Part shown: positions 3,001-6,000 of the stretch, one piece after another
How the letters are laid out: the number at the start of each line of letters is the position of its first letter
How positions within the stretch are numbered: position 1 is the first letter of the stretch
Assembly: GCA_003558085.1 (NCBI GenBank)
Contig: PWMT01000069.1
Location: forward strand, 1 to 6,996
Source of the DNA: Methanobacteriaceae archaeon
GTDB taxonomy: Archaea > Methanobacteriota > Methanobacteria > Methanobacteriales > Methanobacteriaceae
Direction: 5' to 3'
Length of the DNA stretch: 6,996 nt
Position numbers: made by a program

Positions 3001-6000
3001 AACGTAATTAAAGCTAGTACCAGGGACATATTTAATATTCCTATAGCCAATGCCACGGCATTCAATAGATAATATTCTTCATTGCCAATTAACATATCAT
3101 TCCCTCTCTTTTTTCTTCAATTCACTCCAAATTTGATTAAAGGCTTCATAATTTTTTATCATAATATCTGAGAGAAAATAAATTTCCCCATACTTTTTAC
3201 CTTCAGTAGTTACTATTTTATTTTCTTCTAAAATTTTAAGGTGGTGTCTTATAGTTTTATAATTTAAATTAAGCTTTTCAGCTAATTGATTAGCATTATT
3301 AGGACTTTCATATAATTCCATAATTATTCGAGCCCGATTAGGACCTCCTCCAGATCCAGCGATTAACCACCAAAGTATTTTATTCATTTTCAACCCCAAT
3401 AAATTTTAAAGAGGTAAGTAATTAGAACATTTTTCATTTCAAATTACATATTAATGGCCATTATAATTGAACTTAATCCTCTTTTTTCTTTGGTTTAAAT
3501 TCATATCCACATTCTTCACATATTATTCCTTTTGTAGTTGCATGAGCCCGATGTTCATCTTGAATTTTCCTTAAAACTTTTTTATCCGGGCATCCGCATA
3601 CTGGACATTTTTGCAGCAGTTCTTCCATTTTCATATAATTAATGTTCAATTTAAATGCACATTAAATTTTTGGTATATGCTCTATAATGATTTATTGAAT
3701 TTTAAAATTTAATAAAGATTTTAAGAAAACCTTATTTAAGGATATGAATTGTAAAAAATAGCTTTTTATTATTAAATATTAACTGAATATGAAAAATTAA
3801 GTCTATCCCTGGCTTTACTGCCATTTAAAACTGGAATAAAAAAATAAAAAAATTTATTTTTTAAAAGGGAGCAAATATGCCAATAAATACCAGCCAGGCC
3901 AAGGCTGTTTTAGCAATTAAGCTCAGCAAAATATATACTCTTTCACCATAGAGATAATCTTTCCACTTACCAATTCCTTTGTACTGCATTATCATGTTTA
4001 TTGAAAAAGTATTGAACATGATAAAGTAAATAAGCAGTGTTAAATAGACGAAAGTAGGTGGCTGTGTCTCCGCAGAACCCAGAGCAGCTATAAAGTAAGC
4101 AGCCATCACCACCCAGGGTGTGAATCCAGAAATACATCCTAAAAGGTATGGTGACCAGTCTGTCTTTTTAGGATACTGGTTAATCTTCTCCATGAGATAA
4201 CCAAACATGATCATCATAGCATTTAGAACAAATATCATCACCAGTGACCATACATCCCAGATCCCTAAAAATTGGGCTATAAGCACTATCATTATAGAGC
4301 TAGAGAATGCGTATTCATACCAGCGATAGGGATTCATTCCTTTTTTAAGATTTTCATTGTATTTTTTGTTTCTAAGAAAGGCAATCACGAAATGAGCTAT
4401 AGCAGATATTAATAGGAAGGAGGCTAAAATAACTCCTAAATTCTCCACAGTGAAAACTACTTGTGGATCTGGTATTACTTGAAAAGTAGGTGGGGTTAGT
4501 GTAACAATTTCAAAATCAAGATAAAAGGTGTATAGATCCCTACTCCACTCCAACCATAATCCCAAGATTACTAATAATATTCCTTGGAATAAGTGTAGCA
4601 TTCCTGCCCCAATATTGAGCTTTCTTAAACTCTTGAAACTTATGGGTGATTTGTCAATTAATTCTCTTCTCAATTCATTATCCATTTAAACCCCCCTTAG
4701 GTATTAATATCTATTATTATAGTTAATATTATATTTTTTGGTACAGGAATTTTTTATTAATCTTAATTTAAGAGCATTAATTAATATTAAAAACAAATAA
4801 ATAGATTATATAATCTTTAACACCCATATCAATTATTAATAAAGGTTATATTAATTAATAGAGGTTATATTATGCCTACTGAAAGTCCCCAGTATAATGT
4901 AGAATATAAAGAAGGAAAATTTGAAATTAGGTTTTATCCGGGTTATATTTTAGCTCACGTAGATATAAAAGCTGATTTTGATAAAGCCCTAGGACAGGGA
5001 TTTGGTATACTGGCTGGTTATATTTTTGGAGATAATCAGGGAAAAGAGAAACTAGCCATGACCATTCCTGTCTCTCAAGAGGATTTATCTTCATCTAAGA
5101 ATAATTCTAGGTCCTCGGAAGCTAAAGAAGAAGAAATTCTAAGTAATATTCATCGTATATCCTTTATCATGCCTTCTAAATACGATTTAAAAACTCTTCC
5201 CCAACCGAATGATGATAGAATAAACTTCAAAGAAGTAAAAAAGGTTAGGATGGCCGTATTAAAATTTTCAGGAAGAGTTAATTCTACTTTGGCTTCGCGC
5301 AAAATTAATGAGCTTAAAGCTTGGATATTGGAGAAAGATTTTGACCCTAAATCTCCTTTTATAGTGGCCCAATATAATCATCCTGCAGTTCCTGGATTTC
5401 TCAGGAAAAACGAAATACAGGTTAAAATTTAAATTGCTAATTAATTTAAGAAATTTTATAGCAGACTCTCTCTCTCCTTTTCATTCTATATATTAAATTT
5501 AACTTATTTATCGAAACATTTCTGAGGACTTTTAACCCTCAAATCCCTGAAATTCTATTTCCTTTATTAAACATCTCCTCTATAAGTAGTGCTCTATTTA
5601 TTAAGGGATTTATGTTCCTAAATTATAATCCTAAATTATAATAATTATCGTTTAATTTTTATTAAATTACTTTTCATTTGCCCTCTTACTTAAGAGAGAA
5701 TAATATTCTGATTGTATAATAAGTTCTGGGAGGAGATGATAATGAAACTCAGTATAGTTGAATTAGGTGAAGATGAAACAGTTTTTTATAACCTGGGCGT
5801 GTTTATGGTAGGTGAAAAATTATTGATATTTCCCTATCCAGAATTTAAGGAATTTTATGAGGATTTAATCTTTCATTTAGATTGTTTAGATGGTGTAATT
5901 AAGGAAGGATTTGTTGCTGAGAAAATGACTCCGGAAAGATCCCTGGAGCTGGCCAAGTATTATCTGGATGAAGTTAAGGACCAGGTAGATAAATTACTAA

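Follow-up and report, generated by a model that had tools for sequence, protein, structure and literature searches.

A heliorhodopsin gene and a divergent SOUL-family gene in a Methanobacteriaceae genome: recurrent linkage in archaea and a possible light-stress module

The heliorhodopsin (HeR) gene of a Methanobacteriaceae archaeon is transcribed divergently from a gene of the SOUL heme-binding family, and these two genes are linked in a non-random way in two or more archaeal classes. The window, a 6,996-nucleotide stretch of DNA, carries the pair. We explain it, with moderate confidence, as a jointly controlled light-stress module. HeR would be the membrane photoreceptor of the module, and SOUL would be a soluble cytoplasmic small-molecule binder, with tetrapyrroles as the most likely ligands, that buffers photosensitising tetrapyrroles. 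With the genes held together, the pigment buffer would be produced whenever conditions call for the light sensor.

The genome-wide survey's note had described intact HeR and SOUL genes in divergent orientation, and both open reading frames were found again with the same gap between them (Table 1). Neighbour clusters 4 and 6, the entry of the ArsR-type HTH regulator and the small membrane protein, were present at 10 of 81 and 9 of 81 HeR loci, respectively, and the association of these two genes with HeR is kept in a few Methanobacteriaceae only.

Table 1. Features of the window around the HeR–SOUL pair.
Feature	Position	Strand	Description
Radical SAM/SPASM peptide maturase (TIGR04083)	938–2086	−	613.7 bits, cut-off 300; opposite end of block
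Small membrane protein	2769–3095	−	Between peptide and maturase
ArsR-type HTH regulator	3097–3399	−	PF01022, E = 2.2e-10; between peptide and maturase
Cys-rich peptide (TIGR04165)	3473–3649	−	71.5 bits, cut-off 60; member of radical-SAM/peptide/HeR/SOUL block
Heliorhodopsin (HeR) gene	3861–4685	−	274 aa, intact; PF18761, NF038020
Divergent intergenic region	4686–4871		186 nt; Shine-Dalgarno-like run before both start codons; putative shared control region
SOUL/HEBP-fold gene	4872–5432	+	186 aa, intact; PF04832; divergent copy

The HeR protein matched PF18761 over profile positions 1–241 of 242 (E = 1.9e-93, 312.7 bits, cut-off 26.7) and NF038020 with 346.4 bits (cut-off 100). Comparison with the solved TaHeR (6is6/7clj) gave E = 8e-58. 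E124 aligned with the counter-ion Glu on TM3 of TaHeR (6is6), and K259 with its Schiff-base Lys on TM7; the mutant entry 7clj has Asp at the position of E124. Both residues were invariant in 25 of 25 aligned HeRs. The family and the two functional residues proposed in the survey were thus reproduced. From the similarity to TaHeR, HeR probably has the inverted topology, with the N-terminus inside, and probably binds retinal. The charged ICL1 and ICL3 stretches include the invariant residues K115, R121, D243, and E248. In comparison with the same-genus genome G128, for which dS was saturated, HeR had a dN/dS of about 0.03. One 162-nt metatranscriptome contig fell within HeR (4078–4216) with 2 mismatches in 139 nt, and a relative or carried-over DNA may be its source. 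No metatranscriptome contig matched SOUL in the one RNA run compared, which shared a small part of the sequence words and for which contigs were searched; these matches speak neither for expression nor for silence.

SOUL is present in a single copy in the genome. Its sole profile match was PF04832 (E = 8e-42, 143.6 bits, cut-off 27), over profile positions 2–172 of 173, which bears out the family assigned before. The protein has no TM segment, no signalling domain, and no N-terminal hydrophobic stretch, and it is predicted to be soluble and cytoplasmic. The AF2 model (pLDDT 80.4, pTM 0.72) was disordered at residues 72–90. Its best Foldseek matches were HEBP2 5gqq (E = 2e-10, TM 0.76/0.80) and the heme-bound HEBP1 7oon (TM 0.79/0.80), and GyrI-like ligand-binding domains ranked after them. 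The predicted fold is therefore of the HEBP type.

In Methanobacteriales SOULs a 13-residue MTxPV repeat occurs 1–6 times in tandem, and acidic TEE-rich repeats are present as well. In the window's SOUL the first MTxPV motif is kept (aa 63–67), and a Ser/Lys/Glu-rich low-complexity stretch (aa 72–90) stands in place of the second. This second motif was kept in 24 of 24 aligned relatives, where I78, M80, P83, and V84 were nearly invariant. Three MTxPV motifs were present in the SOUL of G128, and the SOUL of another same-genus genome, G129, had an in-frame stop. The terminal branch of the window's SOUL measured 0.91 against a median of 0.088 in the SOUL tree, and its dN/dS was about 0.12 against G128. 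The atypical SOUL of the window, lacking the second motif, and the in-frame stop in G129 speak against the module.

Porphyrins are the documented ligands of the SOUL family (PMC4067076, PMC7006542), and binding of heme and tetrapyrroles is known for SOUL proteins of plants (PMC7006542). The SOUL alignment A1 had no His or Cys that was invariant. The heme synthase AhbD was sought in the 95.9%-complete genome, and nothing scored above the cut-off (77.6 bits against 500). As no heme b synthase was recognisable, the likely ligands are intermediates of the F430 or corrinoid pathways or their oxidised photosensitising by-products rather than heme. SOUL would bind a tetrapyrrole and probably have a protective role. 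In Chlamydomonas, both singlet oxygen and a dark-to-light shift induce SOUL genes (PMC4067076), and in Erythrobacter a SOUL gene belongs to a light-regulated general stress regulon, alongside SOD and photolyases (10.1101/641647).

The survey's note had judged the literature silent on SOUL near HeR. This was wrong, as the association is already in print. Chazan et al. (bioRxiv 10.1101/2021.02.16.431466; cited in PMC11109279 as Environ Microbiol 2022, 24:110) place the SOUL heme-binding domain at the head of their list of HeR-neighbour families, in several taxa, with a Thermoplasmata fosmid as the example, which involves a different HeR group. They tie SOUL to oxidative stress, together with AhpC, photolyase, and PNPOx. 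According to the same text, no such neighbour family is exclusive to HeR, and SOUL also occurs beside proton-pump rhodopsins.

We fetched 80 HeR loci, of which about 6 had less than 1.6 kb upstream and were weakly informative. A SOUL homologue was present in 31 of the 80, and in 27 it was on the opposite strand, no more than 1.3 kb upstream. Methanobacterium ferruginis and M. oryzae are cultured strains with HeR and SOUL among the fetched loci. SOUL was the commonest neighbour family (32 of 81 loci; the runner-up reached 13). For counts by class, with labels taken from record titles and the window and locus L109 added, SOUL was adjacent in 24 of 37 Methanobacteria loci, adjacent in 6 and near in 2 of 38 Bathyarchaeia loci, and adjacent in 0 of 3 Methanomethylicia loci. 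The survey had presented the head-to-head pair as conserved across archaeal classes, Nitrososphaeria included. It was found again in Methanobacteria and Bathyarchaeia but was not reproduced in Nitrososphaeria, where 0 of 3 loci were adjacent and the SOUL of L039 lay on the same strand, 3.7 kb off and separated by two ORFs. SOUL was the only neighbour family that adjoined HeR in both of the former classes. Between classes, identity was 63–71% for HeR and 33–39% for SOUL.

Among 328 Methanobacteriales genomes, 63 had both genes, 16 HeR only, 26 SOUL only, and 223 neither; these counts are phylogenetically non-independent. The co-occurrence seen in the survey persists, with 37 adjacent pairs; SOUL without HeR was commoner than the survey had claimed. 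The adjacent pairs were divergent in 36 genomes and co-directional in 1; in the other genomes with both, the genes lay far apart on one contig (12) or on different contigs (14). In one genus (g29) all 9 genomes had both genes, in no case adjacent but far apart on one contig in 4 and on different contigs in 5, in agreement with the survey. Methanothermobacter likewise has HeR and SOUL unlinked. A sample of 401 genomes from the class of a Bathyarchaeia-labelled MAG contained 31 genomes with both genes, and 15 of these pairs were adjacent, 5 of them on the same strand. Three arrangements were observed, one divergent and two same-strand, the latter with SOUL either upstream or downstream of HeR, and whenever both genes were on one contig they were within 5 kb (20 of 20). 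On the HeR tree, adjacency underwent at least 17 changes. Two of these counts speak against the module: HeR and SOUL are non-adjacent in 26 of the 63 Methanobacteriales genomes with both, and HeR occurs without SOUL in 16 of 79 HeR-bearing Methanobacteriales genomes and in 31 of 62 of the Bathyarchaeia-class sample.

The shared intergenic region suggests that HeR and SOUL are co-regulated. Comparison of 19 intergenic regions revealed GGAGG-type runs at both ends. A TATA-like 8-mer occurred in 14 of the 19, against a shuffle maximum of 10; it was the sole motif that stood out and is generic. Four relatives had an intergenic region of 77–86 nt with a single central TATA-like element. Phylogenetic footprinting of the 19 regions detected no conserved operator, a result that also tells against the module.

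SOUL is not confined to HeR. In Bathyarchaeia-type loci it also flanks type-1 rhodopsin genes, which occurred at 2 HeR loci and 2 further SOUL loci. In L064 the order on one strand was type-1 rhodopsin, SOUL, HeR, and in L136 a type-1 rhodopsin (PF01036, E = 6e-29) lay directly downstream of a second SOUL. At 40 SOUL loci away from rhodopsins, MsrA was adjacent in 12 and TspO in 8; in 10 of the 12 MsrA cases the two genes had the same orientation and overlapped or abutted at start and stop, which couples them as in an operon. MsrA-SOUL-MsrB fusion proteins also exist (P0002, P0003). HeR loci in Bathyarchaeia-labelled MAGs contained AhpC/Bcp peroxiredoxin genes in 7 cases and PNPOx-like genes in 12. 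SOUL was kept in 26 Methanobacteriales genomes with no credible rhodopsin of either kind, including the single-contig assemblies G082, G119, and G120 (97–99% complete). The survey's proposal of SOUL as a functional partner of HeR therefore stands as far as non-random linkage is concerned, but not as a relation specific to HeR. MsrA, TspO, and the AhpC/PNPOx-like genes tie SOUL to oxidative or tetrapyrrole stress, and its position beside type-1 rhodopsins as well as HeR ties it to light in general. As SOUL travels with both rhodopsin families, MsrA, and TspO and survives without rhodopsins, a role in light or photo-oxidative stress is favoured over a specific signal relay.

In the SOUL tree of Methanobacteriales, HeR-linked, unlinked, and HeR-free copies were interspersed, with 16 state changes. 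A dedicated HeR-linked SOUL subfamily was considered for this order and rejected, because the linkage states are interspersed. In the Bathyarchaeia-type tree, rhodopsin adjacency was found in 14 of 28 rows of one clade against 1 of 22 rows of the other.

HeR might instead regulate SOUL directly, binding it at the cytoplasmic face so that light alters ligand binding or release by SOUL; we consider this unlikely. Such a role would resemble the published pairs of HeR with glutamine synthetase, photolyase, and an ABC exporter (OcHeR-OmrDE). HeRs are documented to act as regulatory rhodopsins whose positively charged cytoplasmic loops bind proteins encoded next to them (PMC11109279). The invariant charged loop residues of HeR would fit it, as would a soluble cytoplasmic SOUL with TEE-rich repeats in Methanobacteriales, the same-strand pairs in the Bathyarchaeia-class sample, and the rhodopsin-enriched SOUL clade. 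The pairing of SOUL with type-1 rhodopsins as well speaks against it. Type-1 rhodopsins have a membrane topology opposite to that of HeR, so a single docking surface for SOUL is unlikely. The interspersed SOUL tree holds no partner-specific subfamily, and 26 genomes have SOUL without any rhodopsin. A search of 24 SOUL homologues of 456–2000 aa, a range above the roughly 326–455 aa at which a fusion with HeR might lie, revealed no such protein. Shim et al. (PMC11109279) distinguish ten groups of same-operon partners, and SOUL is not one of them; their main text contains 0 occurrences of the term.

A role in chromophore handling appears very doubtful. SOUL would carry, store, or supply retinal or a carotenoid precursor in the cytosol, for both kinds of rhodopsin, in anaerobes to which the oxygen-dependent Blh route to retinal is closed. 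HeR and type-1 rhodopsins have retinal and light in common, and SOUL flanks both; the SOUL/GyrI-like fold binds varied hydrophobic ligands. The genome encodes a carotenoid pathway, with CrtID (676 bits, cut-off 640), CruF (166 bits, cut-off 155), an SQS_PSY synthase, and a prenyltransferase, and the search of the genome found no carotenoid cleavage oxygenase (RPE65). Blh gave no match in the genome either, but the search controls were equally silent, so this result does not establish its absence. Chazan et al. (10.1101/2021.02.16.431466) describe blh as rare in HeR genomes and suspect another retinal route. Against a chromophore role, the same SOUL orthologue group is present in rhodopsin-free genomes, G082, G119, and G120 included, and 16 and 31 genomes of the two samples carry HeR without SOUL. 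The neighbours MsrA and TspO indicate stress rather than pigment supply, and the documented ligands of the family are porphyrins (PMC4067076, PMC7006542). A narrower form, to which we give similarly little credence, is that one SOUL clade in the Bathyarchaeia-type tree (clade B), perhaps together with the SOUL of Methanobacteriales, serves HeR and type-1 rhodopsins as a dedicated accessory that binds and delivers the chromophore or its carotenoid precursor. If so, clade B SOUL would act as a retinal chaperone in the cytosol or belong to a retinal supply that needs no oxygen, in strict anaerobes unable to use Blh.

HeR is the variable member of the conserved radical-SAM/Cys-peptide/HeR/SOUL block in Methanobacteriales. 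The block included HeR at 11 loci and in the window, and SOUL lay beside the radical-SAM gene without HeR at 11 loci, with the peptide found in 8. Part of the conservation within the order is therefore plain synteny, a further point against the module. Inherited synteny in Methanobacteriales, block transfer elsewhere, and co-occurrence through a shared free-living ecology, with no functional tie at all, is the least credible explanation: SOUL is equally conserved beside the radical-SAM gene without HeR, the genomes with neither gene are mostly whole genera (g19 0/103, g17 0/26, g22 0/24), adjacency is labile, and intergenic regions are not conserved, but SOUL alone among neighbour families adjoins HeR in both classes, Bathyarchaeia-type loci keep the pair close in three arrangements, adjacency persists despite the low SOUL identity between classes, and the Thermoplasmata case (Chazan et al., 10.1101/2021.02.16.431466) involves a different HeR group.

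A small, soluble, readily expressed neighbour offers a tractable handle on the role of HeR in archaeal cells. The proposed light-stress module also raises the question of why strictly anaerobic methanogens combine a carotenoid pathway with a light sensor and a pigment buffer.

Among known systems, HEBP1 (p22HBP) and HEBP2 (7oon, 2hva, 3r8j, 4b0y, 5gqq) share with SOUL the PF04832 domain, a single-domain soluble architecture, and the predicted fold (TM 0.72–0.80), whereas identity is only 18–24%. The archaeal SOUL differs in having no invariant His as a potential axial ligand and a host without recognisable heme synthesis, and Methanobacteriales SOULs repeat the MTxPV motif, the window's copy lacking the second. 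Htr proteins (HtrI and HtrII of SRI and SRII) are located in the membrane, contain HAMP and methyl-accepting domains, and are co-transcribed with their rhodopsin. The HeR-SOUL pair resembles these sensory rhodopsin-transducer pairs in that a photoreceptor gene adjoins the gene of a candidate downstream protein, but SOUL is predicted to be soluble, has no HAMP/MCP signalling domain, and is divergently transcribed. To our knowledge, only three types of HeR partner have been shown so far, all of them bacterial. As in the HeR-partner operons (PMC11109279), a slow-photocycle HeR with conserved basic cytoplasmic loops is encoded beside a protein that it might modulate. The partners in those operons are co-transcribed and their binding was measured, whereas here a small predicted ligand-binder is encoded divergently: HeR and SOUL occupy opposite strands in the window, as they do in all but one of the 37 adjacent pairs of Methanobacteriales, and are thus not co-transcribed from one promoter. 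With the neighbourhood of Chazan et al. (10.1101/2021.02.16.431466) our loci share the association itself, as well as AhpC (7 loci), PNPOx-like genes (12), and type-1 rhodopsin. The available text of that study gives SOUL one sentence and a figure dot, with no analysis of Methanobacteria or Bathyarchaeia and no divergent arrangement; genome-level co-occurrence, SOUL phylogeny, and the MsrA/TspO partners, which do not appear in that text, were all three examined here.

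The genome-wide survey's note had described an intact HeR gene and a SOUL gene on opposite strands, 186 nt apart, and both the ORFs and the profile matches bore this out. The window is the entire contig C98 (6996 bases) of a 1.86 Mb genome, 95.9% complete, from the order Methanobacteriales, with which the pseudomurein-binding-repeat protein is consistent. The HeR aligned end to end with the solved TaHeR structure 6is6 (E 8e-58), with E124 and K259 at the counter-ion and Schiff-base positions, respectively. The AlphaFold model of the SOUL protein (pLDDT 80.4, pTM 0.72) superposed on HEBP2 and heme-bound HEBP1 in a structure search (TM 0.76–0.80), with GyrI-like ligand-binding domains as weaker matches. 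Each start codon was preceded by a Shine-Dalgarno-like run, and the genome held one copy of each gene. Neither the 131-aa nor the 176-aa ORF showed conservation next to HeR across the 81 loci surveyed.

Features of the window and of the carotenoid cluster in the same genome (G000, contig C109, locus L177)
Feature	Location	Strand	Evidence
Coiled-coil protein, 176 aa	330-860	-	no family match
Radical SAM/SPASM maturase, RiPP-like pair	938-2086	-	TIGR04083 613.7 bits
Cys-rich peptide, RiPP-like pair	3473-3649	-	TIGR04165 71.5 bits
Heliorhodopsin, full length	3861-4685	-	PF18761 E 1.9e-93; NF038020 346.4 bits
SOUL-family protein	4872-5432	+	PF04832 E 8e-42
ORF downstream of SOUL, 131 aa	5712-6107	+	no Pfam or NCBIfam match
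Pseudomurein-binding-repeat protein	6388-6996		domain match
Bacterioruberin-type carotenoid cluster	L177 1243-7455		
CrtID	L177 cluster		NF058655 676 bits, cut-off 640
Prenyltransferase	L177 cluster		PRK12875 355 bits, cut-off 205
CruF	L177 cluster		TIGR03460 166 bits, cut-off 155
SQS_PSY synthase	L177 cluster		
HEAT_PBS protein	L177 cluster		

From species-representative genomes we retrieved 80 HeR loci whose HeR was 63–84% identical to that of the window. A SOUL homologue was found in 31, and in 27 it lay upstream on the opposite strand within 1.3 kb. Blind clustering of all ORFs, which were called naively, made SOUL by far the top neighbour family (32 of 81 loci, window included); the runners-up were a radical-SAM maturase at 13 loci, a PNPOx-like protein at 12, and an ABC ATPase at 10. 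Across 328 Methanobacteriales genomes, 63 carried both genes, 16 HeR only, 26 SOUL only, and 223 neither, counts that kinship of the genomes inflates, here as in the second class. The last group consisted mostly of three host-associated genera (0/103, 0/26, and 0/24). At genus level HeR occurred in 13/29, SOUL in 12/29, and both in 12. Under adjacency thresholds of our own setting (1.5–2 kb), the 63 pairs were adjacent and divergent in 36 genomes, adjacent and co-directional in 1, far apart on one contig in 12, and on separate contigs in 14; fragmented MAGs conceal some linkage. The second sample, 401 genomes centred on that of locus L060, covered the class of a Bathyarchaeia-labelled MAG. (Class labels throughout were taken from the record titles of the MAGs; one HeR contig bears the label Sumerlaeota.) The sample gave 31 genomes with both genes, 31 with HeR only, 26 with SOUL only, and 313 with neither. 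Fifteen of the 31 pairs were adjacent (10 divergent, 4 same-strand with SOUL upstream, 1 same-strand with SOUL downstream), 5 were 2–6 kb apart, 11 were on separate contigs, and none was far apart on one contig. The occurrence of three arrangements, the involvement of two classes, and the mere 33–39% SOUL identity between those classes speak for selection on HeR–SOUL proximity. A head-to-head pair had also been reported for Nitrososphaeria, but in the sole case there (L039) SOUL and HeR share a strand and lie 3.7 kb apart, and that claim was dropped.

Part of the conservation within Methanobacteriales has a simpler source. The maturase, the Cys-rich peptide, HeR, and then SOUL on the opposite strand formed a block of conserved order in 11 fetched loci and the window. 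At 11 other loci, 5 of them from a genus with HeR and SOUL unlinked in 9/9 genomes, SOUL adjoined the maturase gene with no HeR between, and the peptide was found in 8. Since the block is kept with or without HeR, HeR is the member that varies within a syntenic frame, and plain synteny accounts for some of the pair's conservation in the order. HeR–SOUL adjacency is also labile. On the HeR tree, built like the others by a quick method, it switched at least 17 times, and well-supported branches force 10 of these switches. One genus had SOUL in 18/23 genomes and HeR in 4/23; another had HeR in 4/5 and SOUL in 0/5. No credible type-1 rhodopsin match was obtained in the 328 genomes, which leaves the 26 SOUL-only genomes, three of them single-contig assemblies 97–99% complete (G082, G119, and G120), without a credible rhodopsin. 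HeRs of Methanomethylicia (3) and Bathyarchaeia-labelled MAGs (3), at L013–L015, L018, L020, and L028, nested within the Methanobacteria HeR clade at 74–77% identity to the window HeR with no SOUL nearby, a pattern suggesting that HeR moved between classes unaccompanied by SOUL. A Methanosuratincola genome carried SOUL elsewhere, away from HeR. On a 65-sequence SOUL tree, HeR-adjacent, unlinked, and HeR-free Methanobacteriales SOULs were interspersed (16 state changes), ruling out a partner-specific subfamily in the order.

The window SOUL itself was atypical. Its branch on that tree was 0.91 long against a median of 0.088, and identity to same-genus genome G128 was 61% for SOUL and 88% for HeR. 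The second MTxPV motif, kept in 24/24 aligned relatives, was absent. Overall dN/dS was about 0.12 with dS saturated, so the gene is still constrained. Methanobacteriales SOULs in general carried a variable tandem array of about 1–6 copies of a 13-residue unit with the MTxPV motif, ending in an acidic TEE (L034:1893-2675, L036:4095-4787, and L003:3912-4571 in alignment A1); Bathyarchaeia-type SOULs had two motifs and the window SOUL one. Decay of the pair was seen in several genomes. In the same genus, G129 (C62, L124) had one in-frame stop in SOUL, and G130 lacked both genes. Stops interrupted both in G056 (C144, L129), SOUL was decayed beside intact HeR in G312 and G313, and SOUL was intact beside an HeR remnant in G064 (C1, L131) and beside a frameshifted HeR in G718 and G726.

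SOUL also accompanied other partners. At L136 one copy flanked a frameshifted HeR, and the gene immediately downstream of a second copy was a type-1 rhodopsin (PF01036, E 6e-29; region 8278-9626); genes nearby encoded three fasciclin-domain proteins and an ABC-2 exporter. L064 (3534-5825) carried type-1 rhodopsin, SOUL, and HeR in that order on one strand, and type-1 rhodopsin remnants occurred near SOUL at L060 (2823-5822) and L174. Fifty SOULs from Bathyarchaeia-type loci formed two clades (98% support each); 14/28 rows of clade B had a rhodopsin adjacent or close by, versus 1/22 of clade A, with 'adjacent' set at 2.6 kb. Among 40 fetched SOUL loci away from HeR, MsrA (methionine sulfoxide reductase) adjoined SOUL in 12 (MsrA loci: L137–L148, L166, and L169); 2 were divergent, and in 10 the genes shared a strand with overlapping or abutting start and stop. 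To judge from this layout, SOUL genes away from rhodopsins are translationally coupled to msrA at those 10 loci. A search for longer SOUL homologues returned MsrA-SOUL-MsrB fusions (P0002, 540 aa; P0003, 511 aa) and, among 24 homologues of 456–2000 aa, no SOUL–rhodopsin fusion. TspO, a membrane protein that binds tetrapyrroles, adjoined SOUL at 8/40 loci (L144, L147, L161–L163, L165, L171, and L173). A DUF1722 (YbgA-like) gene did so at 6/40 (L152, L153, L156, L158, L174, and L176); E. coli ybgA belongs to the operon of the photolyase gene, and DUF1722 may thus be a further tie to light.

The genome also held a bacterioruberin-type carotenoid cluster, for which our literature search found no paper in Methanobacterium. 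PF04240 (CruF-like) matched 64/201 sampled Methanobacteriaceae genomes, only in genera with HeR/SOUL or related free-living ones; the three large host-associated genera had no match. Counted by hand, the 32 genomes with a window-type match (≥140 bits) comprised 23 with HeR, 6 with SOUL only, and 3 with neither.

The best-supported reading, to which we give about even odds, is that HeR and SOUL form a light-stress module. SOUL would bind photosensitising small molecules in the cytoplasm and be controlled jointly with the photoreceptor HeR. The geometry of the shared intergenic region points to such co-regulation: in four relatives the entire region measured 77–86 nt with one central TATA-like element, and no conserved operator was found in the 19 regions compared. 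Heme is an unlikely physiological ligand, since no heme b synthase match rose above cut-off in this genome and cytochromes are not known in Methanobacteriales; the natural candidates are compounds formed along, or as by-products of, the F430 and corrinoid pathways. Direct HeR–SOUL contact, by analogy with published regulatory HeRs (PMC11109279), appears unlikely, because SOUL is equally associated with type-1 rhodopsins of opposite topology. That same association, with retinal common to both types, would suit a SOUL that handles the chromophore, as would the lack of a recognisable retinal-forming enzyme in the genome (the Blh search controls were also silent); rhodopsin-free genomes with SOUL count against this role, which we consider improbable.

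In the literature searched we found no quantification of the pairing in methanogens or Bathyarchaeia-type genomes, no Methanobacteriales syntenic frame around HeR/SOUL, no rhodopsin-associated SOUL clade, no MsrA or TspO coupling of SOUL, and no heme-free host of the pair. The pair offers a lead on what HeR does in archaea that is ready for the bench, if one unsurprising to specialists. The HeR–SOUL association is already in print: the preprint by Chazan et al. (2021; 10.1101/2021.02.16.431466) groups SOUL with AhpC, PNPOx, and photolyase as families tied to oxidative stress that lie near HeR and also near proton pumps. According to further reports, heme and tetrapyrroles are ligands of plant SOUL proteins (PMC7006542), singlet oxygen and dark-to-light shifts induce SOUL genes in Chlamydomonas (PMC4067076), and the light-regulated stress regulon of Erythrobacter includes a SOUL gene with SOD and photolyases (10.1101/641647).
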